Assembly (NCBI GenBank): GCA_947469885.1
Contig: CANIQT010000013.1
Coordinates: 13,604-77,603 of the forward strand
Origin: Bacteroidota bacterium
GTDB lineage: Bacteria; Bacteroidota; Bacteroidia; 2-12-FULL-35-15
Direction: 5' to 3'
DNA: 64,000 nt
The notes beneath the pieces are model-generated. The model was not told the origin of the DNA. It saw only the letters and a list, made by a program, of their open reading frames with translations, and searched no databases. Position 1 is the first letter of the stretch; every line of letters starts with the position of its first letter. A program made the translations under genes and the position numbers. This document shows, piece by piece, positions 34,642-64,000 of this stretch.

Positions 34642-36708
34642 ATGAAGAAACTCTTTCCCCTAGTTATTGTTATTAATCTTTTACTGTGTCCGGCTTTTGC
34701 TCAAAACAAAGTCATTGATTCTCTTCAAGCAGAATTAACAAAAACAACGGATGATACCACCCGCCTTAAAATATATTTGGCACTTGGCCAGGTATGCAAT
34801 GTAAAAGATAATTTGAAATATGCTCAACCTGCACTGAAGCTTGCAGATAAACTTATTGCTCATACATTTCAGAATAATAAGAAAAATGAATTTTTAAATC
34901 AGAAGGCGGAAGTTTGTATTTTCTTTTCCAATTACTATTTTTATATTAATGATACCGCCAAAATAGCAGAATGGCAGCAAAAACTTATATCTATTTATAA
35001 AGAAACAAAAGATACAAATAGTATTGTGGATACATATTTGGGGTACAGTAGTTATTTTAAGAGTATAGGCAACTTTCCAAAATCATTAGACTGGAGCAAA
35101 AAAGGATTATCCGTATCCACAGAAATGAATTACAAAAAAGGCATTTCAAGGGCGTTATGTTATATCGGAGATATCTATCGCGACCAGGGCGAAAAAGGTC
35201 AGGCACTTCAAAACTATACCAAGGCGTTAAACCTGTTGTACGAGCTTAACGACACCACTTTACTGGTGGATGCATTGTTGGCAACAGGAGGACTTTTCCG
35301 CACTCCTCAATATTATAATCGGGCCCTTGCTTTGTGCGAAGCAAAAAAAATGAATGATAAAGTAAGTTATATCTATCGATTTTTAGGGCAGATATATCGA
35401 GAACATAAAATTTACGATACTTCATTAATAAATTATCAAAAAAGTGCATCACTCTTTGAAGCGATGAAGAATAAAGAAATGGTGAAAGATATTTTGGATG
35501 ATATAGGGTTGGTGTATGAGGAAAAAGGAGATTTGGAAAAAGCACTTGACTATCATTTAAAGGCATTAAAATCAGCCAAAGAACTTAACTATGAATATGG
35601 AATTGCCTCGTCTTATCTTTGTTTGGCTCGTACATACAACAAACAAAAAAATTACAAGCTCGCTAAAGACTATAGCGACCGTGCGCTGAAAATGAAAAAC
35701 CAGTTTAATATTGAAACTAACCGCAATGCCGAACTAACTGCTTCACAAATAGATTCGGCAGGTGGAAATAAAAACGAAGCTTTTGAGCACTATAAGCAAT
35801 ACATCTTGCTTCGCGATAAAATGCAAAGTGAAGAAATACACAAAGCAGCAGCTCAAGAGAAATTTCAAAACGAATTTGATAAACAACAGACAATTGCTAA
35901 ATCGGAACAAGAAAAAATAAAAGCAGTGGCAAATGCAGAAAGTAAAAAGCAAAAACTTATACTTCTTTTTGTGGTGCTTGGTTTGATGTTGGTATTGGTG
36001 TTTGCAGGCTTTGTGTTTCGTTCGTTACAGATAAGAAATAAACAGAATAAAATTATCACTTCGCAAAAAGCAGAAGTAGAAAAAGAAAAACAAAGAAGTG
36101 ATGAACTATTGCTTAACATTTTGCCCGAAGAAGTAGCCGAAGAGTTGAAACAAAAAGGAAGCGCAGAAGCAAAACAGTTTGATAATGTTACTGTTCTGTT
36201 TACCGATTTTGTTGGCTTTACCTTGATAAGCGAAAAACTAACACCAAAAGAATTGGTTGCCGAAATACATTATTATTTTACCGAATTTGATAAAATAACA
36301 GAGCGGAACGGGTTGGAAAAAATTAAAACCGTTGGCGATGCTTACCTTGCCATTTGTGGTTTACCTAATGAAGATAAATATCATGCAAAAAAAACGGTTC
36401 AAGCAGCGCTGGAAATAATTGAGTTTATTAATAGGCGGGCAGCAGAAGGAGGAAAGTTTAATATTCGCATAGGTATTAATTCAGGCTCGGTGGTAGCAGG
36501 TATAGTTGGTGTTAAAAAGTTTGCGTATGATATTTGGGGAGATACGGTAAACACAGCTGCAAGAATGGAACAAAACAGCCAAAACGGTAAAATAAATATT
36601 TCAGAATCTACTTATCAGTTAGTAAAAAACGACTTTAAATGTGTACACAGGGGAAAAATAGAAGCAAAAAACAAAGGCGAAATTGATATGTATTTTGTGG
36701 AAAAATAA
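34642..36708 (+). CDS. TPR-repeat sensor adenylate/guanylate cyclase (class III), membrane-anchored
   Basis: Signal peptide, then multiple TPR-like repeats, a TM helix LILLFVVLGLMLVLVFAGFVF, and a cyclase domain with VLFTDFVGFT and KTVGDAY motifs. Confidence 0.8.
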   Translation: MKKLFPLVIVINLLLCPAFAQNKVIDSLQAELTKTTDDTTRLKIYLALGQVCNVKDNLKYAQPALKLADKLIAHTFQNNKKNEFLNQKAEVCIFFSNYYFYINDTAKIAEWQQKLISIYKETKDTNSIVDTYLGYSSYFKSIGNFPKSLDWSKKGLSVSTEMNYKKGISRALCYIGDIYRDQGEKGQALQNYTKALNLLYELNDTTLLVDALLATGGLFRTPQYYNRALALCEAKKMNDKVSYIYRFLGQIYREHKIYDTSLINYQKSASLFEAMKNKEMVKDILDDIGLVYEEKGDLEKALDYHLKALKSAKELNYEYGIASSYLCLARTYNKQKNYKLAKDYSDRALKMKNQFNIETNRNAELTASQIDSAGGNKNEAFEHYKQYILLRDKMQSEEIHKAAAQEKFQNEFDKQQTIAKSEQEKIKAVANAESKKQKLILLFVVLGLMLVLVFAGFVFRSLQIRNKQNKIITSQKAEVEKEKQRSDELLLNILPEEVAEELKQKGSAEAKQFDNVTVLFTDFVGFTLISEKLTPKELVAEIHYYFTEFDKITERNGLEKIKTVGDAYLAICGLPNEDKYHAKKTVQAALEIIEFINRRAAEGGKFNIRIGINSGSVVAGIVGVKKFAYDIWGDTVNTAARMEQNSQNGKINISESTYQLVKNDFKCVHRGKIEAKNKGEIDMYFVEK

Positions 36709-36835
36709 TACCCAAATAAAAAAAGCAATGTAGGCATTGCCAAGCCCCCCGCCCTGTTGACCATAGCCTCTGACTAAATTCGATTTAACAAGACTTCCAG
36801 TCTTTTTAGCCTTTGTTGGTGTTTTTCACCAACAA

Positions 36836-37053
36836 ACGTGTGAAGAAAAAAATCGGGATATTTAATTTCGTACGTTTGCAGGTGAAAAACACCTGCAAAG
36901 GCATCGTTTTCGTTAATAATTAAGAACACCAACAACGGCTAAAAACGTGTGAAGAAAAAAATCGGGATATTTAATTTCGTACGTTTGCAGGTGAAAAACA
37001 CCTGCAAAGGCATCGTTTTCGTTAATATTTAAGAACACCAACAATGGCTAAAA
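36836..37053. repeat. two tandem copies of a 109-bp unit (98 percent identical), each containing a 10-bp-stem hairpin TTTGCAGGTG-aaaaa-CACCTGCAAA; flanked upstream by an inverted partial copy (ttttagcctttgttggtgtt, 36816-36835)
   Basis: Direct comparison of 36836-36944 with 36945-37053 shows 2 mismatches. The inverted repeat between 36816-36835 and the unit ends aacaccaacaa(c/t)ggctaaaa is visible in sequence. Confidence 0.85.
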
Positions 37054-37405
37054 GGCTTTCAGTATTTTTATTTATATGGTTATCTACACCTTTCTTCAAA
37101 TTCATAAAACAAAGATAAGTATAATTGCTACAGAGCAAAAGTTAAAGGCACAAAAATAAATTAGGGCTTTAATAATTTATACTTCTGTTTGGCATACCTT
37201 CTGATGTAGGCTCAACTATATTTTCAAAATCCTTGTATCTTTTTTAACTTTTTGCGTTATTACTATAAAAACAAAAAATATTTACGGAAAAATGTAACCT
37301 TTTATTTTATCTTTCGTAAAACTAGATATAACCACAAAACAATAAGCGCATGAAACACCCCTACCAACAGTAAACATCAAAAAATCAGTGCGCTTAAAAT
37401 TTTTT

Positions 37406-37446
37406 AACCATTAACCATTATCACTTAACCATTATCCATTAATCAC
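37406..37446 (+). promoter_or_regulatory. cluster of reiterated AACCATTA(TC) motifs upstream of the sigma-factor gene (candidate operator/promoter element)
   Basis: The sequence aaccattaaccattatcacttaaccattatccattaatcac carries three or four copies of CCATTA within 40 bp, ending 16 bp before the TTG-initiated ORF. Confidence 0.25.
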
Positions 37447-37528: not shown

Positions 37529-38119
37529 ATGACAAAAGAACAAAAAAGAGAGGCAGAGCAACTTAGAGATGCGCCCCTCATTCAGCAACACAGAGATGGC
37601 GATGCAAAAGCATTTGCCCAACTTGAAAAACTTTACAAAACTCCCCTTTATTGGTATAGCTATAAAAAGCTGGGCAATCGCCCGGATGCTGAAGATGCCG
37701 TGCAGGAAGTATTTATAAGAGCAGTGGAAGCTATCAACAATGGAAACTACAGGGAAGAAATGCATTTTGGCGGGTGGTTGCACACAACAGCCCGCAATTA
37801 TATAGAGCATATTCAGAAAAAGAAAAAGCCAACTATAAAAAATGTGGAAGAATTACCAGAGGTGATGATGGAAGAAACAGAAAGTAAAGAAGAAATTAAA
37901 GAAAAAAGAAAACGGGTACGCAGCCTGTTTAAAGGGTTATCGCTCAGTGAAGCTAAATTAATGTTGCTTCGTTACTGGCATAAACTAAAATGGAAAGAGA
38001 TTGCAAAACGACTTAAAATAACTGAAAAGTATGCATCAGGGCTACATTCAAAGATTATTAAGAAGTTTCAAAAAAAGGCGGGTGAAAATATTTTTTTGAA
38101 AAATGGTGGGATTTTTTGA
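37529..38119 (+). CDS. sigma-70 family (ECF-type) RNA polymerase sigma factor
   Basis: Region-2-like DAVQEVFIRAVEAINNG...GWLHTTARNYI and a region-4 HTH KWKEIAKRLKITEKYASGLHSKIIKKFQKK. The track ORF begins at a TTG (37463). The ATG at 37529 (MTKEQK) is the likelier start. Confidence 0.65.
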   Translation: MTKEQKREAEQLRDAPLIQQHRDGDAKAFAQLEKLYKTPLYWYSYKKLGNRPDAEDAVQEVFIRAVEAINNGNYREEMHFGGWLHTTARNYIEHIQKKKKPTIKNVEELPEVMMEETESKEEIKEKRKRVRSLFKGLSLSEAKLMLLRYWHKLKWKEIAKRLKITEKYASGLHSKIIKKFQKKAGENIFLKNGGIF

Positions 38120-38194
38120 GTTTTGTGTATTGTATATATAAAGGGTGTTATCGTTCTTTAAATAGTAAAATTGATTTCAAGTGAAATCTGTCGC

Positions 38195-38278
38195 GTTTCC
38201 GAAGGAATGCGACACGTTTCCGAAGGAATGCGACACGTTTTCGAAGGAATGAAACAAGTTTCCTTGGAAACAGAACAA
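38195..38278 (+). repeat. four tandem 21-bp iteron-like direct repeats (GTTTCCGAAGGAATGCGACAC x2 perfect, x2 degenerate)
   Basis: 38195-38215 and 38216-38236 are identical. 38237-38257 has 3 mismatches. 38258-38278 is degenerate and contains the palindrome gtttcc-tt-ggaaac. Confidence 0.85.
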
Positions 38279-38334
38279 ATTTTAGTAGAAACAAAATAGT
38301 AAATAAAATTATAATCAATTAAAACAAGAAAAAG

Positions 38335-38442
38335 ATGAACAGCGTATTATTTCAAAGTTTCGGGATTTTTAGTCTTTTATCCTTGCTGCAGTTATACAGC
38401 GTAAAGAAGCAAAAAAAAAGGAGGTGTAAAATGTCATGGTAA
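38335..38442 (+). CDS. possible 35-aa upstream ORF (MNSVLFQSFGIFSLLSLLQLYSVKKQKKRRCKMSW) overlapping the start of the downstream gene (ATGGTAA)
   Basis: It is in frame from the ATG at 38335 to the TAA at 38440-38442. A strong Shine-Dalgarno-like AAAGGAGGTG lies at 38417-38426, which is unusual for Bacteroidota. Confidence 0.25.
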   Translation: MNSVLFQSFGIFSLLSLLQLYSVKKQKKRRCKMSW

Positions 38443-39038
38443 TCGTAAAAAATGGTTTAAAGGGAAAAAATCCTTCACAACGGGCAACATACTGTTTGAG
38501 AGTGAAAACAAAAACCACGGGAAATGCGTTTTTTCCTGATGCGGGTCCGTTTTTGGCACCGCTGGGAGATGCAGCAGCAGCAGTGAACACTGCATTGCAA
38601 AACCCGTTGGGGACAGCCGCCACAGTGAGAGAAAAAAATGGCGTGCTTAGGGTAAAGATGAACAAGTTTGTTGCTCACGTGCAGGGTGTGATAGATGAGG
38701 TGTCGGACGACCTGGCTTTGGAAATGCTTTCTACAATTGATTTGGAAGCAAAGATAGAGACACCAGTGCATATTCCTGATTTGTCGGCTAAGCAAGGTAG
38801 AGAAGCAAATTCAATAGCGGTGCGAAGAATTGCTGAAAGAAAACGGGTGACATACAGATTTCAAATCTGTACCGACCCGTCTTTGGAAGAGAACTGGAAA
38901 GATGCTAAAACATCGAGCAGGGCTAAAGTCGTGATTCGGGAATTAATTTCAGGTACCAAGTATTATTTGCGTGTTGCAATTATACGGGGCGATGTTCAGG
39001 AAGATTGGTCAGATTACATTTCTATCATTGTTGATTAA
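38436..39038 (+). CDS. hypothetical protein with C-terminal Fn3-like fold (200 aa), GC-richer than surroundings
   Basis: Intact ORF. The C-terminal SGTKYYLRVAIIRGDVQEDWSDYISIIV is beta-sandwich-like. The antisense track ORF 38475..38795 is rejected. Confidence 0.5.
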   Translation: MVIVKNGLKGKNPSQRATYCLRVKTKTTGNAFFPDAGPFLAPLGDAAAAVNTALQNPLGTAATVREKNGVLRVKMNKFVAHVQGVIDEVSDDLALEMLSTIDLEAKIETPVHIPDLSAKQGREANSIAVRRIAERKRVTYRFQICTDPSLEENWKDAKTSSRAKVVIRELISGTKYYLRVAIIRGDVQEDWSDYISIIVD

Positions 39039-39595: not shown

Positions 39596-39784
39596 TTATT
39601 GGAAAATTATAAGCAACAAAATTAAGCAAATTTATTTAACCTGATAAATAAACGGTGTGGGCATTATATTATTACTTTTGTTGCTCATTAATAGATTGAT
39701 TCTACCATATTTCATGTGAAATAGAAAAAAATTAAACACATAGGTACATAACTCAACTTGCTAGTGGTGAAACTGTTTAAAAGT

Positions 39785-39921
39785 CAATAGCCACGACCTT
39801 TAGGTCGTGGTAACATTTGATTATAAAAATTGGCTTTAGCCAAAAAATTGTTGTTTTTGTTGGGCTGAAGCCCAATTACATCTTTAATTATTTTCCCCCG
39901 ACCTAAAGGTCGGGGCTATTG
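39785..39921. mobile_element. 137-bp MITE-like element: 26-bp imperfect terminal inverted repeats (24/26), each arm itself a perfect 8-bp-stem hairpin, enclosing two further hairpins
   Basis: The left arm is caatagccacgacctttaggtcgtgg (39785-39810). The right arm is ccccgacctaaaggtcggggctattg (39896-39921). The internal hairpins are ttggct-tt-agccaa (39830-39843) and ttgggct-ga-agcccaa (39860-39875). Confidence 0.4.
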
Positions 39922-39982
39922 TTAGTAGTCCAATACAAGTGCTTTTTCAACTATCAACTTGAGTTACTAGAAGAAAGAAACC

Positions 39983-55692: not shown

Positions 55693-56673
55693 ATGAAAAA
55701 AATATTAAATCTTATATTTTGTGTTTTGTGTTTCGTGAATAATCTCAAGTCGCAAAATCTTGTACCTAACGAATCATTTGAAGTTTTGGACAGTTGCCCA
55801 AACAATCAGGGAAGAATATATCTTGCTCTGCCGTGGTTTCAACCTTGCATATATTCAGGTAATACCCATAACTCTTCAAGCTCCGATATTTACAATCCAT
55901 GTGCTTTATGGGCTCCAGCTGGAGTTCCGGTCAATATGGTTGGTTCCCAATTTGCCAGAATTGGTGTTGGATATGCAGGTATTCACCCAGATGTTGACAC
56001 TTTTAATTACCGCGAATACATTGAAGTCCCATTATTATCGCCATTAATTGCCAATAAACTGTATTGTGTAAAGTTTTATGTTTCCTTGGCTGAAACGTCA
56101 CATCATGCCATAAGTAATATGGGGGCATATTTTTCAAATGATAGCTTATTGGATACTTCGTATTATCATGCCATAGATTATGTTTTTCCGCAAATAGAAA
56201 ATCCTGGAAATGTTTTTTTAAATGATACTGCAAATTGGGTGTTGGTTTGGGGTAATTTTATTGCTACTGGTGGAGAGCGGTTTATGACAATAGGAAATTT
56301 TCATAATCATGCAAATACAAATGTTCAAAATTTGAACGGAGGTTCTCTAGGCAACTGGTCGTATTATTACATAGATGATGTAAGTGTTATAGATTGCGAT
56401 AGTATAAGTGGGGTAAAAGAAATGAATGATGAAATGGAAGTGAGCATTGCGCCCAACCCGGCAAAGGATGAATTACGAATTAAGAATTATGAATTAGGAA
56501 TTAAAACAATAAAAATATATAACCTGCTAAGTGAATGTGTCTATAACACAACAATAAAACAATTAAACACTATAACCATTGATGTTGCCTATTTACCCAA
56601 AGGCATCTATTTTATTGAACTGCAAAGTGAGAAAGGAACTGCGAGAAAGAAGTTTATAAAGGACGGCAAATAG
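55693..56673 (+). CDS. secreted CBM4_9-like domain protein with T9SS type-A CTD (paralog A)
   Basis: Signal peptide MKKILNLIFCVLCFVNNLKSQ, an NLVPNESFE jelly-roll start, and the C-terminal SIAPNPAKDELRIKN...KGIYFIELQ CTD. Confidence 0.65.
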   Translation: MKKILNLIFCVLCFVNNLKSQNLVPNESFEVLDSCPNNQGRIYLALPWFQPCIYSGNTHNSSSSDIYNPCALWAPAGVPVNMVGSQFARIGVGYAGIHPDVDTFNYREYIEVPLLSPLIANKLYCVKFYVSLAETSHHAISNMGAYFSNDSLLDTSYYHAIDYVFPQIENPGNVFLNDTANWVLVWGNFIATGGERFMTIGNFHNHANTNVQNLNGGSLGNWSYYYIDDVSVIDCDSISGVKEMNDEMEVSIAPNPAKDELRIKNYELGIKTIKIYNLLSECVYNTTIKQLNTITIDVAYLPKGIYFIELQSEKGTARKKFIKDGK

Positions 56674-57446: not shown

Positions 57447-58415
57447 ATGAATAAAGCATTCTTTCTTTTCGTAATATTGAACTTGACTCAGAATCTTTCA
57501 ATGAATGGACAAAACCTTGTACCTAATTCCTCTTTTGAAGTAATTGATTCTTGCCCTACTATAGATGGAAAGCTATATTTTGCGCAACCATGGTTTCAGC
57601 CCTGCATTTATTATGGGAACACGAAAAACTCTTCTAGTTCCGACATCTTCAGTTATTGTGCGTCATACATGGGTGTTCCTACTAATGGAGAAGGTTCTCA
57701 ATTTGCAAGGACAGGTAACGGATATGCAGGTTTTAGTCCTTACGCTGGTATTAATAATGGTCGCGAATATAACGAAGTTCAACTATTATCACCGTTAATA
57801 GCCAATAAACTCTATTGTGTAAAATTTTATGTTTCATTAGCTGAAACCTCACGATACGCAATTAGCAAATTAGGTGTGTATTTTTCCGTAGATAGTTTAT
57901 TAGATACTTCCTATTATCATGCAATAGATTATGTTTTTCCGCAAGTAGAAAACCCTAGTAATATTTTTTTAAATGATACATCTAATTGGATGTTGGTATG
58001 GGGAAATTTTGTTGCAACTGGTGGAGAGCGGTTTATGACAATTGGTAATTTTCATAATCCCGCAAATACAAATGTTCAAAACGTAAACGGAGGTTCTTTT
58101 TATTGGACATATTATTATATAGATGATGTAAGTGTAGTAGATTGTGATAGTATAAGTGGGGTAGGGGAAATTAATGGAGAGGTGGATGTGAGCATTGCGC
58201 CTAATCCTGCAACGGATGAATTACGAATTAAGAATTATGAATTAGGAATTAAAACAATAAAAATATATAACCTGCTAAGTGAATGTGTCTATAACACAAC
58301 AATAAAACAATTAAACACTATAACCATTGATATTGCCTATTTACCCAAAGGCATCTATTTTATTGAAGTACAAAGTGAGAAAGGAATAAAGAGGAGAAAG
58401 TTTGTGAAAGAATAA
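57447..58415 (+). CDS. secreted CBM4_9-like domain protein with T9SS type-A CTD (paralog B)
   Basis: The 322-aa product is collinear with paralog A at about 75 percent aa identity. Its CTD coding part is nearly nucleotide-identical to that of paralog A. Confidence 0.65.
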   Translation: MNKAFFLFVILNLTQNLSMNGQNLVPNSSFEVIDSCPTIDGKLYFAQPWFQPCIYYGNTKNSSSSDIFSYCASYMGVPTNGEGSQFARTGNGYAGFSPYAGINNGREYNEVQLLSPLIANKLYCVKFYVSLAETSRYAISKLGVYFSVDSLLDTSYYHAIDYVFPQVENPSNIFLNDTSNWMLVWGNFVATGGERFMTIGNFHNPANTNVQNVNGGSFYWTYYYIDDVSVVDCDSISGVGEINGEVDVSIAPNPATDELRIKNYELGIKTIKIYNLLSECVYNTTIKQLNTITIDIAYLPKGIYFIEVQSEKGIKRRKFVKE

Positions 58416-58918: not shown

Positions 58919-61900
58919 ATGAAAAGAGTACTTTTCCTTGTTTCCTTATTTGTTTTCAATTTTGCATTTGGTCAGGCTCCGCCAAATGATAACTGTATAA
59001 CCCCACAGGTTATTGTTATTCCTGCATCTGGTACAATTTGTGTTAACTCAACCAACATAAACGCCACAAGCGATGGGTTTCTGAACACTTGCGATGTAGG
59101 TGTTCCGGGCAATGAAGTATGGTTTGCATTTGTTGCAACCGGAACTTCCAACACTGTTACAATCACACCAAATGGCGGGACTCCTGCACAGTTTGCGGTG
59201 GTTTCGATGCAAAATACCAATTGCGCTTCGGGCTCTTATAACATTTGTAATGCCAGTGCAACAGCAGGTGGTGCGGCATCGGTTACTTATTCTTACACTC
59301 CGGGTTCCCAAATATTATTTTCGGTAGAAACAGAAGGGGCAGACGGAACCTTTCAGGTGTGTGTAACCTCCACTACTCCACCTCCCGGACCAGGTAGTTC
59401 GTGTGCTACCGCAACATCTATTTGTACAATGGCTCCGTTTACTCAAAATCCAATGCCGTCCAATGTGACTGCATTGTTACCATCTTGTTTTTTTGTTAAT
59501 CTTCAACAACCGGTGTTTTATCAGTTTACAGCTGGTACCACCGGAACTTGTGCTTGGTCTGCTACTCCGCTTGGAGCGGTTGAATACGATTGGGCAATGT
59601 ACAATATTACAGCTGGTTGCCCAGGAGTGGAAGTTGCTTGCAATTATGATTATAATTTCAGCGCAGGTTCACCTGTAGGAATGGCTATAGGTTCGCCATC
59701 CCTCTGCCCAACTAGTTCAGTGGCGGTGAGTGCATCTGATGAAATGTGCCCTCCCATTGTTGTCACAGCCGGGCAAACCTATTTGATTGTGATAGATAAT
59801 TTCGACTTTAATGGTATCGGATTTGATTTTGCTTGGGGCAATGGAACTTTTCAGATGCCAAGTTCTTCGTTTACTGTAAATCCAACAAATGCCTGCAATT
59901 CGGCACTTGCTACATTTGTAAATAATAGTGTGCCTGTTGCTGCTGCTTCTCATTGGGATTTTGGTGATGGAACTACTTCTAACCTTCACAGTCCGCCACC
60001 ACACAATTATCCTACACCCGGAACTTATTTGATTTCGTTAACCACTACTACCGCTAACGGTTGTCAATATATCAGTTCGAACAGTGTTACGGTAAATACG
60101 ACACCAACCATGACCACACCACCCAACATTTCGGTGTGTGCAGGTACAGCCATTGCAGCAAGTAATTTTGTGAGTAACCCTACGGGAGCCACCTTCGCAT
60201 GGACCAACTCAAATAACGCCATCGGATTGGCTGCTAATGGAACAGGAAACACCCCTGCTTTCACTTCCACTAATGGTACAGGTTCAAATATTGTTTCTAC
60301 CATCACTGTTACTCCTACTCGAAATGGATGTGCGGGAACACCAGTAAATTATACTATTACTGTTACACCTGGTCCAACCATTGCTAATGCAGGTCCCGCA
60401 CAAAGTGTTTGCGGTACAACAGCCACACTTGCCGGAAACACAGCAACTACAGGGGTAGGAACATGGACACTCGTTAGCGGTGCAGGAACAATTACAAATC
60501 CGAATTCACCAACATCTGGTGTAACAGGGCTTGGAGTAGGTGCCAATGTTTTTCAATGGACAATTATTAGTGCACCTTGCCCAAATTCTACTAGCCAAGT
60601 AACTATCACCTCTGGAAACGCCACCAGTGCCTCGGTTGCAGGTCCTAATCAAACCGTTTGTGGCACCACAGCAACACTAGCAGGAAATGCTCCTGCGGTT
60701 GGTGTGGGTACTTGGACATTAGTAAGCGGAGCAGGAACTATCACTACTCCCGGTTCTCCAACATCAGGGTTAACCGCCCTTGGAGTAGGTGCCAATGTTT
60801 TTCAATGGACAATAACCAACGCAGGATGCCCTTCTACTTCTAGTCAAGTAACTATTACTGCAGGTGCTATACCAACTGTGGCAGTTGCAGGAGGTAATCA
60901 AATTGTATGTGGAACAACTGCTACATTGGGTGGTAACACCGCAACTGTTGGTGTTGGCACATGGACACTGGTTTCGGGAGCAGGAACCATTACCAGTCCT
61001 AATTCACCATCATCAGGTGTAACAGCACTTGGACCCGGTGCCAATGTATTTCAATGGACGATTGCACTTTTACCCTGTCCTGCTACGTCAAGTCAAGTAA
61101 CCATCACTTCGGTGCAAGTACCCACTGTAGCTGCTGCAGGACCTAATCAAACCGTTTGCGGAACGAATGCAACATTAGCAGGAAATGTTGCAGCCATCGG
61201 AACCGGGCTTTGGACTGTCGTTAGCGGTTCGGGAACAATTGCCAACACTGGATTAAACAACTCTGCTATAACAGCACTTGGTGCAGGAGCCAATGTGTTT
61301 CAATGGACTATATCGAATGCACCATGCGCTTCCACATCAGGTCAGGTAACCATAACAGGAGTTACACCACCAACGGTGGCAGCTGCAGGACCTAATCAAA
61401 CTGTTTGTGGAACTACCGCTACATTAGCTGGAAACCTTGCTGCATCAGGCACAGGGCTATGGACATTGATAAGCGGTACAGGAACAATTACTACCCCGTC
61501 TTCTGAAACATCAGGATTAACAGCACTTGGAGTAGGAGCCAATGTATTTCAATGGACCATATCCAATGCGCCTTGCCCTACATCCACTAGTCAGGTAACC
61601 ATTACAGGAGTTGCGGTGCCTACTGTAGCTGTTACGGGACCTAACCAAACAGTTTGTGCCACTACCACCAACTTAGCCGGAAACATTGCAGCTGCTGGTT
61701 CAGGGCTTTGGACATTAGTAAGCGGAGCAGGAACAATAACAACACCAGCATCCGAATCAACTGGAATAACAGCACTTGGCATAGGAGCCAATGTGTTTCA
61801 ATGGACCATCTCAAATGCACCTTGCCCTTCCACTTCGAGCCAGGTAACCATTACCGCAGGCACACCTTCTACAGTTGCAGCTGCCGGACCCAATCAAACC

Positions 61901-64000
61901 GTTTGTGGAACGTCAGCAACACTTGCAGGAAACGCTGCTGTGGTTGGAGTTGGAGTGTGGACACTGGTTTCAGGAAGCGGAACCATTACCAATCCTACGT
62001 TACCTAATTCGGGAGTTACGGGTTTAGGATTTGGAGCCAATGTGTTTCAATGGGAAATTGATAATCTTCCTTGTCCTCCATCCACTAGTCAGGTAACTAT
62101 TACAGCTGTTGATGTTCCTACTGTTTCGGTGGCAGGTCCTAATCAAAATATTTGCGGAACTACCGCCACATTAGCCGGAAATGCTGCAACAACAGGCACG
62201 GGACTATGGACATTGGTTAGTGGAAGCGGAACTATTTCAACACCTTCGCTCGCAACATCAGGTATTACAGGGTTGACAGTGGGTAACAATGTTTTCGACT
62301 GGACCATTTCCAATGCACCTTGTCCTGCTTCTTCTACACAAGTAACTATTGCTGTTAGTTCCATACCAACGGTTGCCAATGCAGGACCTAATCAAACTGT
62401 ATGCGGAACAACAGCTACATTAGCAGGAAATACTGCTACAACAGGTGTTGGAACCTGGACATTAATTTCAGGTGCCGGAACAATTACTAATCCTGCATTG
62501 GAAAATTCAGGTGTTACAGGTCTTGGACCGGGAGCAAATGTGTTTCAATGGCAGATAGATTTATTGCCTTGCCCGCAAACAACCAGTCAGGTAACTATTA
62601 CATCCGTTGCTACTCCAACTGTGGCAGCAGCTGGACCTAACCAAACAGTTTGCGGAACAACTGCAACATTAGCAGGAAACCTTGCTGCCGTGGGTACAGG
62701 AGTATGGACATTAGTTTCAGGAACTGGAACAATTACCAATACAGGATTAAATAATTCAGGTATTACAGCACTTGGAGCAGGAGCTAATGTATTTCAATGG
62801 ACTATTTCGAATGCGCCTTGTCCTGCTTCTACTAGTCAGGTAACCATTACAGGCGTTTCTATACCAACTGTTGCCAATGCAGGAGCTAATCAAACAGTTT
62901 GCGGAACCAATGCTACATTAGCCGGAAATGCTGCTGCTGTTGGTACAGGAGCATGGACAGTCGTTAGCGGAAGCGGTACATTTACAAATTCTACCTCTGA
63001 AACATCAGGTATTACTGCACTTGGAGTAGGTGCCAATGTTTTTGAATGGACGATATCAAATGGTATTTGTCCTCCAACATCAAGTCAGGTAACCATTACA
63101 GGAGTAGCTACTCCAACCGTTGCTGCTGCAGGACCTAACCAAACCATTTGTGCTACTACAGCTACATTAGCCGGAAATATTGCCACCACAGGCACAGGAG
63201 TGTGGACAGTAGTAAGTGGTGCAGGAACTATCACTAATCCTGCTTCTCCAACTTCAGGAGTTACTGGCTTAACTGTTGGTACAGATGTGTTTCAATGGAC
63301 GATTACTAATGCACCTTGTCCTGCAAGTTCAAGTCAAGTTACAATCACAGTAGGTGCCCCAACCACTATTGCTAACGCTGGTGTAAATCAAAACGTTTGC
63401 GGAACAACAGCTACTTTAGCAGGTAATGTGCCTGTTACCGGAACAGGTGCATGGACAGTAGTTAGCGGAGGAGCAACTGTTACAAGTCCATTAGCTTTCA
63501 ATTCAGGTGTTACCAATCTTGCACCTGGGGCTAATGTTTTTGAATGGACTATCTCTAGTGCTAACTGTCCTCCAACTACCAGTCAGGTAACTATTACAGC
63601 TACTCCAATACCTCCTGCACCGGTTGTTGTATCGCCTCTCAACTATTGTCAGTTTGATGTGGCAGGTGTTCTTTCAGCTACAGGAACCAATTTATTATGG
63701 TACACCAATTCCACTGGTGGTGTTGGAAGCCCTATAGCACCAACTCCTTCTACTACTTTATCTGGTACCACTAATTATTATGTTTCGCAAACAATAAACG
63801 GATGCGAAGGTCCGAGAACTTTTATTGCGGTGATTGTGGCTACCTTTCCTGTTGCAAGTTTTTATGCTCCGTTAACAAGCAGTATCGAAAATCCGGTTAT
63901 TCATTTTACAGACGAATCAGTGGGTGCTACTTCATGGTCGTGGAATTTTGGTGATTTTTCATCAGGAGCAAATAACACGAGTACTTCTCAAAACCCAACC
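58919..64000 (+). CDS. giant cell-surface adhesin-like protein, 5' 1694 codons (continues beyond window): N-terminal domain, PKD domain, then 13 tandem ~80-aa Ig/PKD-like repeats
   Basis: Signal peptide MKRVLFLVSLFVFNFAFGQ and a PKD-like HWDFGDGTTSNLHSPPPHNY. Repeats of the form PTVAAAGPNQTVCGTTATLAGN...GTWTLVSGAGTITNP...GANVFQWTISNAPCP.STSQVTIT run from about 60350 to 63600 with a 240-bp period. Antisense track ORFs within are artefacts. Confidence 0.75.
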   Translation, partial: MKRVLFLVSLFVFNFAFGQAPPNDNCITPQVIVIPASGTICVNSTNINATSDGFLNTCDVGVPGNEVWFAFVATGTSNTVTITPNGGTPAQFAVVSMQNTNCASGSYNICNASATAGGAASVTYSYTPGSQILFSVETEGADGTFQVCVTSTTPPPGPGSSCATATSICTMAPFTQNPMPSNVTALLPSCFFVNLQQPVFYQFTAGTTGTCAWSATPLGAVEYDWAMYNITAGCPGVEVACNYDYNFSAGSPVGMAIGSPSLCPTSSVAVSASDEMCPPIVVTAGQTYLIVIDNFDFNGIGFDFAWGNGTFQMPSSSFTVNPTNACNSALATFVNNSVPVAAASHWDFGDGTTSNLHSPPPHNYPTPGTYLISLTTTTANGCQYISSNSVTVNTTPTMTTPPNISVCAGTAIAASNFVSNPTGATFAWTNSNNAIGLAANGTGNTPAFTSTNGTGSNIVSTITVTPTRNGCAGTPVNYTITVTPGPTIANAGPAQSVCGTTATLAGNTATTGVGTWTLVSGAGTITNPNSPTSGVTGLGVGANVFQWTIISAPCPNSTSQVTITSGNATSASVAGPNQTVCGTTATLAGNAPAVGVGTWTLVSGAGTITTPGSPTSGLTALGVGANVFQWTITNAGCPSTSSQVTITAGAIPTVAVAGGNQIVCGTTATLGGNTATVGVGTWTLVSGAGTITSPNSPSSGVTALGPGANVFQWTIALLPCPATSSQVTITSVQVPTVAAAGPNQTVCGTNATLAGNVAAIGTGLWTVVSGSGTIANTGLNNSAITALGAGANVFQWTISNAPCASTSGQVTITGVTPPTVAAAGPNQTVCGTTATLAGNLAASGTGLWTLISGTGTITTPSSETSGLTALGVGANVFQWTISNAPCPTSTSQVTITGVAVPTVAVTGPNQTVCATTTNLAGNIAAAGSGLWTLVSGAGTITTPASESTGITALGIGANVFQWTISNAPCPSTSSQVTITAGTPSTVAAAGPNQTVCGTSATLAGNAAVVGVGVWTLVSGSGTITNPTLPNSGVTGLGFGANVFQWEIDNLPCPPSTSQVTITAVDVPTVSVAGPNQNICGTTATLAGNAATTGTGLWTLVSGSGTISTPSLATSGITGLTVGNNVFDWTISNAPCPASSTQVTIAVSSIPTVANAGPNQTVCGTTATLAGNTATTGVGTWTLISGAGTITNPALENSGVTGLGPGANVFQWQIDLLPCPQTTSQVTITSVATPTVAAAGPNQTVCGTTATLAGNLAAVGTGVWTLVSGTGTITNTGLNNSGITALGAGANVFQWTISNAPCPASTSQVTITGVSIPTVANAGANQTVCGTNATLAGNAAAVGTGAWTVVSGSGTFTNSTSETSGITALGVGANVFEWTISNGICPPTSSQVTITGVATPTVAAAGPNQTICATTATLAGNIATTGTGVWTVVSGAGTITNPASPTSGVTGLTVGTDVFQWTITNAPCPASSSQVTITVGAPTTIANAGVNQNVCGTTATLAGNVPVTGTGAWTVVSGGATVTSPLAFNSGVTNLAPGANVFEWTISSANCPPTTSQVTITATPIPPAPVVVSPLNYCQFDVAGVLSATGTNLLWYTNSTGGVGSPIAPTPSTTLSGTTNYYVSQTINGCEGPRTFIAVIVATFPVASFYAPLTSSIENPVIHFTDESVGATSWSWNFGDFSSGANNTSTSQNPT

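Follow-up and report, generated by a model that had tools for sequence, protein, structure and literature searches.

A 21-bp tandem array between a sigma-factor gene and an FN3 gene

The window analysed here is a stretch of 64,000 nt from a Bacteroidota bacterium (contig CANIQT010000013.1, assembly GCA_947469885.1). Between a gene for an extracytoplasmic function (ECF)-type sigma factor and a gene for a 200-aa protein with a C-terminal FN3 domain (p200 hereafter) it carries a short array of 21-bp tandem repeats. These repeats are a short allele of a conserved, fast-evolving, copy-number-variable and non-coding array with a 21-bp period, which would be part of the upstream control region of the p200 gene. 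Coordinates of the features, and the arrays found at homologous loci, are collected in Table 1.

The four-unit array described in an earlier note on this DNA is real: Tandem Repeats Finder (TRF) reports it at 38194-38263 (period 21, 3.3 copies, 89% matches, score 112). As that note stated, two units of GTTTCCGAAGGAATGCGACAC are exact and lie head to tail (38195-38215 and 38216-38236), and two degenerate copies follow; the third unit has 17 out of 21 matching positions (38237-38257), and the fourth has 12 out of 21 (38258-38278) and a palindrome, GTTTCC-TT-GGAAAC. The distances and base composition given there also hold: the array starts 76 nt past the sigma stop codon (38119) and ends 157 nt ahead of the ATG at 38436, and the downstream gene is GC-rich (43.4%, versus 36.6% for the window and 36.3 +/- 3.4% for large open reading frames (ORFs)). 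When the sequence is printed in a 21-nt register and a column consensus is taken, the array extends by one degenerate, in-register unit on each side, giving six units (38174-38299) with the consensus gTTTccgaaGaAAtg.gACAc; depending on which units are counted, the array ends 136-157 nt ahead of the ATG, with promoter-like boxes on its upstream side. In the predicted fold the 3' end of unit 0 (GTCGC) pairs with GCGAC of unit 1.

No other 21-mer within three mismatches of GTTTCCGAAGGAATGCGACAC was found elsewhere in the 64-kb window, and 100 dinucleotide shuffles gave 0 matches. A dispersed family of the REP (repetitive extragenic palindromic) type was not seen in the 64 kb of the window and 161 kb of related loci. 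The array is not a CRISPR: the units abut without spacers, the neighbouring genes carry no cas domains, and the only match to CRISPR-DR models in Rfam is at chance level (15 bits versus a gathering score of 39). In Rfam 15 only tRNA was matched in the window and nothing in six related loci; a permissive Rfam search of 38050-38460 gave matches of at most 17 bits, all far under the cut-offs. A half-period of 10-11 nt is absent from the arrays, and no account of arrays like these turned up in full-text literature searches.

Table 1. Features of the array region in the window, and arrays upstream of homologous genes (percentages are protein identities to p200)
Feature	Position	Strand	Description
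ECF-type sigma gene	37529-38119	+	196 aa; ATG at 37529 as called on identical contigs
Candidate sigma-A type promoter	38095-38125	+	TTTG 38095-38098, 19-nt spacer, GAGTTTTG 38118-38125; overlaps the sigma stop codon
Conserved upstream box	38152-38162	+	CGTTCTTTAAA; family consensus CGTTC[AT]TT[GA]A[AT]; near-palindrome TTCA-T-TGAA; 43 nt before the first perfect unit
Unit 0, degenerate	38174-38194	+	ATTTCAAGTGAAATCTGTCGC; palindrome ATTTCA-AG-TGAAAT; from the register print and column consensus
Two perfect units	38195-38236	+	GTTTCCGAAGGAATGCGACAC; short palindrome TTCC-GAA-GGAA plus GCGACAC
Two degenerate units	38237-38278	+	17/21 and 12/21; the last with GTTTCC-TT-GGAAAC
Unit 5, degenerate	38279-38299	+	ATTTTAGTAGAAACAAAATAG; in register
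A-rich spacer	38300-38356	+	between array and leader; partly alignable across loci
Leader, three-way junction	38357-38410	+	predicted fold, comparison between lineages
Leader stem P0	38357-38361 / 38406-38410	+	GUUUC / GAAGC
Leader stem P1	38362-38366 / 38379-38383	+	GGGAU / AUCCU
Leader stem P2	38385-38388 / 38397-38400	+	GCUG / CAGC
Strong Shine-Dalgarno	38417-38425	+	AAAGGAGGT; 10 nt ahead of the ATG
p200 gene	38436-39038	+	200 aa; N-terminal helical bundle (four helices), C-terminal FN3; without a Pfam, NCBIfam or PHROG family
Array, L016			99%; 10 units of the window's own 21-mer
Array, L021			77%; TTTCAAAGGAAACACGTCACG, x6-7
Array, L024			62%; AGTTCAGCAGAAACAATGCAA, at least 7 units
Array, L025			63%; ~15 degenerate units
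Array, L009 / L018			62%; TCCCGTGGAAATGTGACGCAT, x19 / x18
Array, L010			56%; ACAACAAGAGTAGCGGCAACT, x15
Array, L026 / L027			53%; AGAGTGATGACCATTGCAACG, x11
Array, L011 / L017 and L012			49%; ~13 degenerate units
Array, L013 / L019 and L014			35%; CAAGAGAGTGTGACACAAACT, x9 and x6

Arrays upstream of homologous genes

Homologues of p200 were gathered by protein searches and collection scans, and their contigs were fetched (designated by L numbers). The exact 200-aa protein was found on 14 contigs from metagenomes or metagenome-assembled genomes (MAGs); seven of them cover the intergenic region, and all seven are identical to the window, with four units each. The comparison covered 13 array-bearing lineages of a family that has more than 100 representatives. 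In these lineages (23-99% identity to the window protein, genome GC content 36-67%) an array with a period of 21 nt or 42 nt lies upstream of the homologue, and all homologues of at least 35% identity with an intact upstream region have a 21-nt array ending 145-230 nt ahead of the ATG. An array also precedes four homologues of 23-26% identity (L029, L030, L031 and L032), whose genomes have 47-67% GC. The array of L029 is a 42-nt higher-order repeat in ~10-11 copies. The other three are too degenerate for TRF, and their top four autocorrelation lags are 21, 42, 63 and 84: all four lags are above each of 300 shuffles in L031 and L032, and in L030 three out of four reach or exceed the shuffle maximum (0.37), with lag 21 (0.36) just under it. 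No other array whose period is 21 nt or a multiple of it was found in the 225 kb examined (the window and related loci).

Conservation at orthologous loci, which the earlier note had proposed to check, thus applies to the period, found upstream of p200 homologues in the 13 lineages, and not to the motif, whose sequence is not kept. Consensus units are shared between lineages at only 9-16 out of 21 positions, and two MAGs each contain two paralogous gene-plus-array loci with unrelated units (L011 and L013 in one, L012 and L014 in the other). Short motifs are common to some of the arrays: RTTYC-N2-4-GRAAY to the window's clade (the window, L021, L024, L025, L009 and L011) and CRAGAGTG to L010, L026 and L013. 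The orientation of the units with respect to the gene is ambiguous because the units are partly palindromic (e.g. the window unit matches that of L009 at 14 out of 21 positions on the + strand and 16 out of 21 on the - strand).

The exceptions are L015 and L028, a subgroup with 210-aa proteins that has no array and a different structured upstream region: a common upstream element, CTCGTTTGTTTAACCGTATAT, is followed by nested palindromes (TTTTGC.CCGGCCGG.GCAAAA) at ~1810-1900 of L015 and ~2840-2940 of L028. In this branch the array may have been replaced by another structured element. One further locus, L023 (a 70% homologue), is uninformative: a DDE transposase gene of an insertion sequence (IS) lies immediately upstream, and the first codons of the FN3 gene are replaced. 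An unrelated 43-nt tandem repeat (x4) is found further upstream; the two features occupy 213-384 and 859-1722 of L023.

Copy number changes and the period is kept

Near-identical pairs of loci differ by whole units (4 versus 10, 9 versus 6 and 19 versus 18). The flanks of these three pairs are 93-100% identical, five out of six comparisons being at 98% or more (the remaining one is the upstream flank of L013/L014, 75 out of 81 positions). Since near-identical loci differ by whole units, the array is an active variable-number tandem repeat.

Arrays that have decayed to 40-50% unit identity are still in register. In L031, where identity at lag 21 is 45%, 20 consecutive units each align best at offset 0 to a leave-one-out profile; the register is also kept in 22 out of 22 units of L029, 19 out of 22 of L032 and 12 consecutive units of L025. 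The constraint on the period is strong, not absolute. In L011, L029, L030 and L031 stop codons interrupt all six reading frames across the array, and elsewhere the open frames have no start codons or differ between lineages. With the register kept over ~20 units and six frames closed, the period is constrained, and not by a reading frame; on these comparisons, selection appears to act on the rhythm as such. The array is non-coding and tied to one gene family, with a constrained period, a free sequence and a copy number that varies between strains.

The array goes with the FN3 gene

The window has the gene content of a Bacteroidota chromosome (e.g. a TonB-dependent receptor with a CarboxypepD_reg domain and an AdoHcy hydrolase); it also has a weak PorV-like match below the Pfam cut-off and a weak, partial PorZ-like match far below the cut-off. 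The sigma gene, a gene for a 141-aa protein and a TonB-type receptor gene are found next to p200 in the same species only. In other lineages the flanks are occupied by genes for giant surface proteins of the GEVED/Ig_7/SprB type, by ppk/ppx, or by dprA or glycosyltransferase genes, and the p200-family gene is the sole conserved gene in the array neighbourhoods compared. Judged by these neighbourhoods, the array can be assigned to the downstream FN3 gene and not to the ECF sigma gene. The gene that adjoins the repeat on the map is the wrong partner, and the right one is revealed only by comparison across loci.

Searches of p200 against Pfam, NCBIfam and PHROG gave nothing beyond weak FN3 matches. 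The best fold matches of its N-terminal domain are Fap1 NR-alpha and the talin/vinculin bundles, an adhesin-like fold that is followed by FN3; no signal peptide is evident by eye. An exhaustive profile search collected 226 cluster representatives (E <= 1e-10, clustering at 50%), more than 100 of which are full-length proteins of ~200 aa, the rest being giant multi-FN3 proteins. No relatives of p200 were found in 72,556 plasmids (PLSDB) or in IMG/VR. Genes of the family are often located directly upstream of or beside genes for giant adhesins of the type IX secretion system (T9SS) type, with SprB, Ig_7/CHU_C, GEVED or glycine-rich domains (L028 3001-6633, L009 7280-12277 and L010 4510-6984), which hints that the p200 family is tied to cell-surface or gliding adhesins.

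Promoter-like boxes, leader structure and Shine-Dalgarno

The downstream element of the candidate promoter, GAGTTTTG, matches five out of six specified positions of TAnnTTTG, the consensus of the Bacteroidota -7 box (PMC9723704). In L011, L012 and L013 the array is preceded by a perfect TAnnTTTG box at the corresponding position, and in nine loci no such box occurs between array and ATG. The segment 38095-38125 may, judging from its sequence, act as a promoter. A sigma-54 promoter with the array as its enhancer was also considered and rejected: no GG-N10-GC element matching at 8 or more out of 11 positions lies between array and ATG in 14 loci. The conserved CGTTC box is located 40-101 nt upstream of the array in eight out of nine loci and has a single match in the 64-kb window; upstream of it, four loci have the block TTTGA..ACCTACC..TAAACAA in common.

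Downstream of the array, the + strand of the stretch to the ATG (38279-38435) has 44% A and 61% purine, a bias also seen in all low-GC relatives (61-69% purine in 11 out of 12 lineages, and 51% in the GC-rich L029). A three-way junction is predicted independently in eight out of nine lineages, with an outer stem GCUUC/GAAGC, a covarying variable hairpin and GCUG/CAGC; equivalents of the window leader are located in L009, L010, L011, L021, L024, L025 and L026. Stem P1 differs by lineage (GGGAU/AUCC, GGUU/AACC, GGGUUG/CAACCC, GAGGC/GCCUU, GGGGC/GCCC), and P2 in L011 is ACUG/CAGU, i.e. a G-C pair has changed to A-U. The fold of the window's own leader is no better than those of shuffles (z = 0.04), and the structure is supported by the comparison between lineages. 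RNAalifold offers an alternative in which GCUUC pairs with GGAGGU, which would mask the Shine-Dalgarno (SD) sequence.

The core of that SD, AAAGGAGG, is invariant in 10 out of 10 aligned loci, 8-12 nt before the ATG. Such a strong and invariant SD is unusual because Bacteroidota mRNAs are, as described in PMC6847099 and PMC7797042, generally without SD sequences. Together, the three-way-junction leader and the SD are a candidate for a new cis-regulatory RNA. The array as a series of SD-like standby sites was rejected, as the content of such sites per unit is inconsistent between lineages (z from -4 to +4, a generic anti-SD being assumed).

Other repeats in the window

Several further repeats were observed. 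Between the genes for a TPR-adenylate cyclase and the sigma factor there is a 109-bp tandem duplication (36834-37053; two copies, 98% identical), each copy of which contains a hairpin (TTTGCAGGTG-AAAAA-CACCTGCAAA); the duplication also makes long, imperfect inverted repeats with 36803-36826. At 37404-37446 the heptamer TTAACCA occurs in 5.6 copies (TRF gives 21 nt x2 as well). This tract precedes the sigma ATG at 37529 by ~85 nt and is possibly an operator or promoter element of that gene. In the 460-nt gap between the 141-aa and 85-aa genes there are two GC-rich hairpins, at 39785-39816 (CCACGACCTTTAGGTCGTGG) and 39890-39921 (CCCCGACCTAAAGGTCGGGG), whose 32-nt arms are 88% mutually complementary; wider inverted repeats (39749-39772 / 39943-39966) flank both hairpins and give them the look of a miniature inverted-repeat transposable element. 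A 249-bp unit repeated ~10 times (60637-63177, 68% matches) is probably the repeat region of a giant surface protein. Neighbouring paralogous genes (55693-56673 and 57447-58415) contain identical GAATTAA x5 tracts (56470-56504 and 58218-58252).

A possible mechanism and its alternatives

We favour, tentatively and at a little under even confidence, the interpretation that the array is a phased cis-regulatory platform with many sites, two helical turns per unit, which tunes expression of the FN3 gene. Two turns of B-DNA take 21 bp, and four turns 42 bp; at a spacing of exactly two turns all cores come to lie on one face of the helix. Each unit would contain one short recognition core (in the window's clade the palindrome RTTYC-N2-4-GRAAY), and a factor would bind the same-face cores cooperatively and so set the expression level of p200. 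Slippage would gain or lose whole 21-bp units, which would change the number of sites, and also the distance from the upstream box or promoter to the structured leader, with the helical phase unchanged. Copy number would in this way be a heritable and reversible expression dial. This interpretation is supported by the linkage of the array to one gene family, by the turnover of unit sequences under a constrained period, by the whole-unit differences between strains and by the conserved non-coding architecture in which the array is embedded (the CGTTC box, the covarying three-way-junction leader and the invariant SD). The same-face phasing claimed in the earlier note is borne out in that the 21-bp array is genuinely phased; its cooperative binding by a regulator is the most economical mechanism, but here we infer it, as we infer that a factor binds the array at all, that DNA and not a transcribed leader is the relevant molecule, and that expression is affected.

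Several observations weigh against this interpretation. No binding factor was found; neither domain of p200 resembles a nucleic-acid-binding fold, and p200 was rejected as the array binder on that ground. There is no sequence core universal to all lineages, which makes a single conserved factor unlikely unless its specificity co-evolves with the array. The register has drifted by 2 nt over 13 units in L011 and L012, the array of L031 is ~940 nt from its gene, and the comparison loci are metagenomic contigs throughout. Intrinsic curvature calculated with a wedge model gave no consistent signal (L010 is strongly curved, L013 and L030 are straighter than controls), which is a weak negative. Other points favour RNA over DNA: the perfect -7 boxes occur only upstream of the arrays, which fits sense transcription through them, the arrays are 58-65% purine on the + strand in 11 out of 12 lineages, and most arrays fold better than dinucleotide shuffles. 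The main alternative, which we consider possible if unlikely, is that the element acts at the RNA level, with the array as the 5' part of a long (350-900 nt) p200 mRNA leader whose transcription starts near the -7-like and CGTTC boxes. Its hairpins or purine-rich motifs would then be a platform for an oligomeric RNA-binding protein, a determinant of stability or processing, or a sponge, with the three-way junction and SD downstream. In addition to those boxes (and, in the window, the 5/6 match with TTTG at 19-nt spacing), this would account for the TTTGA..ACCTACC block upstream of the CGTTC box in four loci, for a purine excess on the sense strand that runs through array, spacer and leader, and for the clearly covarying RNA structure of the adjacent leader, and no terminator is predicted between array and gene. 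The excess folding, seen on both strands in most lineages (z from -2 to -8), also speaks for it. Against it, the excess is not significant on the + strand in L029, L030 and L031. Permuting columns among units gives the same local folding energy (z from -1.6 to +1.2, none significant), so there is no covariation support for pairing within units, and the hairpin potential is fully explained by the column consensus. Base-paired hairpins within units were rejected accordingly: the compensatory pairs are seen by eye only (ATTTCA/TGAAAT versus GTTTCC/GGAAAC in the window, TTCC/GGAA versus TTTC/GAAA in L025), with no significant excess on either strand under column permutation. An RNA element would also have no obvious reason for a strict 21/42-nt period, the SD-like content of its units is inconsistent, as noted above, and no Rfam family matches it.

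The remaining explanations are less probable. A functionless minisatellite, descended with its 21-nt period from a single slippage-prone repeat in front of the ancestral gene and maintained by continual expansion, contraction and homogenisation, would agree with the unstable copy number at the strain level, with units that are homogenised within and diverged between arrays (including higher-order repeats of 42, 63 and 126 nt), with the failure to find either a universal core or a binder, and with the L015/L028 subgroup that manages without an array. We regard it as improbable, as the position relative to the gene is kept down to 23% identity and across 36-67% genome GC with all other neighbours changed, the decayed arrays (40-50% unit identity) hold an exact register over 12-22 units without the indels expected of unconstrained DNA, and the period has never moved to 20 or 22 in 13 lineages. 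It is very unlikely that the repeats are replicon iterons or a centromere-like partition site bound by an initiator or centromere-binding protein, and the replication-initiator reading offered in the earlier note is not supported. The ~21-bp direct repeats with two-turn spacing, the AT-rich stretch adjoining them and the cognate-looking array/gene pairs that differ within one genome do resemble such a site, and the plasmid pSTA7437.01 of Stanieria cyanosphaera in PLSDB has 3.7 copies (98% matches) of a 21-bp unit, TTTCCGAATGAACACAAAACG, that shares 16 out of 21 positions with the window unit. That array (L033 1482-1558, i.e. NC_019765.1 161477-161553) is ~420 nt from a replication gene of the CyRepA1 family and probably represents the iterons of that plasmid. 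By a rough estimate, however, a 16/21 match is about what chance would give in 7.3 Gb of plasmid sequence with its many 21-bp arrays, and the BLAST E-value of 5e-4 counts repeated units as independent. No gene similar to Rep, ParA, ParB or ParR is present, and the linked protein consists of a helical bundle and FN3; DnaA boxes are missing within 1.4 kb (TTWTNCACA occurs nearest at 36696, and less often than by chance in the window as a whole); the array is surrounded by genes for housekeeping functions and surface proteins, which vary between lineages, with the identical gene on one 187-kb contig; and p200 has no plasmid or phage relatives in the collections searched. An equally poor candidate is a function related to the sigma gene (an ECF-dependent promoter array, an autoregulatory site or a terminator), and a link to the adjacent sigma factor was rejected. 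The array does lie 76 nt past the stop codon of that gene on the same strand, and its first unit and the flanking GTCGC together make a GC-clamped hairpin, but the gene is absent from all other array-bearing lineages, and promoter geometry of the ECF or sigma-54 type is lacking: no unit contains GGAAC-N16-17-CGT, manual reading found nothing consistent 16-17 nt upstream of the CGTTC box, and there is no -24/-12 element. No terminator-like site is predicted there on the + strand either. Finally, 21 nt equals seven codons, and the array could be imagined as a coding heptad repeat in a small ORF or unannotated gene. Several frames are open across homogeneous arrays, gene callers put small ORFs on some of them, an ATG-initiated 105-aa ORF in L025 reads as xFLxxQx heptads, and the window has a TTG-initiated 56-aa ORF on the minus strand (38148-38318). 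There is no shared frame, though (the frame open in L025 and on the minus strand of the window is closed by TGA in L009), most open frames have no start codon upstream of the array, and with six out of six frames interrupted in four of the loci, as given above, this explanation is effectively refuted.

A more far-reaching version of the regulatory interpretation, which we think rather doubtful, is that array, CGTTC box and three-way-junction/SD leader make up an undescribed, phylum-wide class of cis-elements that functions by periodicity and not by sequence. It could take the form of a lattice, in which a dedicated and co-evolving oligomeric factor would polymerise on the DNA or on the nascent leader, or of a spacer of variable length, which would keep an operator on its upstream side in phase with the leader on its downstream side.

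Comparison with known systems

The array most resembles plasmid iterons in form, and its behaviour is nearest to that of the variable repeat tracts in promoters and 5' untranslated regions (UTRs) of contingency loci. Iterons (e.g. the 22-bp repeats of the R6K gamma origin, and those of pSC101, F and P1) share with it ~21-bp direct repeats at two helical turns and a location directly upstream of one particular gene, with which the array diverges, different pairs coexisting in one genome. The array beside CyRepA1 on pSTA7437.01 has the same form as that of the window, and its function is not annotated. Unlike iterons, the arrays studied here come without a Rep-type initiator, DnaA boxes or a replicon context, their linked protein has no DNA-binding fold, and their copy number (up to 19-22) and strain variability are far above what is usual. 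Contingency tracts include the 7-bp repeats upstream of hmw1A/hmw2A in Haemophilus influenzae, TAAA at nadA in Neisseria meningitidis and AGAT in the uspA2 5' UTR of Moraxella catarrhalis. Like them, the array is a tract with promoter-like elements on its upstream side and, on its downstream side, the start codon of a gene that is probably surface-associated; otherwise identical strains vary in how many units they carry, and graded expression would be expected as a result. It differs in having a unit of 21 bp and not 1-7 bp, in its conservation throughout a gene family and over very deep divergence, and in the constraint on its period even where degenerate arrays are no longer slippage-prone.

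Operators of the LytTR type (AgrA, ComE, PlnC) consist of 9-bp repeats separated by 12 bp, i.e. with a period of 21 bp, and PhoB/PhoP bind tandem pho boxes. These too are direct repeats upstream of a gene with 21-22 bp from centre to centre, and degenerate arrays keep short cores at a fixed register with the rest variable (e.g. GGAAC in L025, ..AAG...CT in L031; no core is common to all lineages, and homogeneous arrays are uninformative in this respect). Such operators have two to four repeats at -40 to -80 from the start site, whereas the arrays have 4-22 repeats; no response-regulator gene is conserved beside them, and the only adjacent LytTR system is in L028, which has no array. Tandem-repeat partition centromeres (parC of R1, sopC of F, parH of TP228) resemble the arrays in having ~10 or more direct repeats immediately upstream of a gene, and theirs control genes and serve as oligomerisation platforms; here, in contrast, ParA/ParM and ParR/ParB/ParG genes are missing and the context is chromosomal and varies between lineages. 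Sponge RNAs of the CsrB/RsmZ type contain many GGA hairpins, and strict periodicity is not one of their features. The array, if transcribed, would likewise reiterate short, hairpin-like, purine-rich motifs; it differs by its strict period, the lack of covariation support for hairpins and the absence of an Rfam match. To our knowledge, CsrA is generally absent from Bacteroidota. Taken with these systems, the array would be a form of upstream regulatory tandem-repeat array, and it is possible, if rather unlikely, that its periodicity-dependent mechanism is something new.

Significance

Conserved non-coding features of bacteria are usually recognised by their sequence or by RNA covariation. Here the conserved feature is a 21-nt rhythm, which persists while the sequence turns over completely, GC content shifts widely, every neighbouring gene is lost and copy number flips between strains. 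The invariant strong SD, in a phylum whose ribosomes normally ignore SD sequences, is a second and directly testable lead. If the array is a regulatory dial, control of the contingency type would extend from the short homopolymer and tetranucleotide tracts of pathogens to long minisatellite units, and to free-living, uncultured freshwater Bacteroidota. The comparison also singles out an unannotated helical-bundle/FN3 family (more than 100 clusters at 50% identity) as one that would be elaborately regulated. If the more far-reaching version were true, whether as lattice or as spacer, these small adhesin-like FN3 proteins, often encoded beside giant T9SS surface proteins, would be under a heritable and reversible dial.

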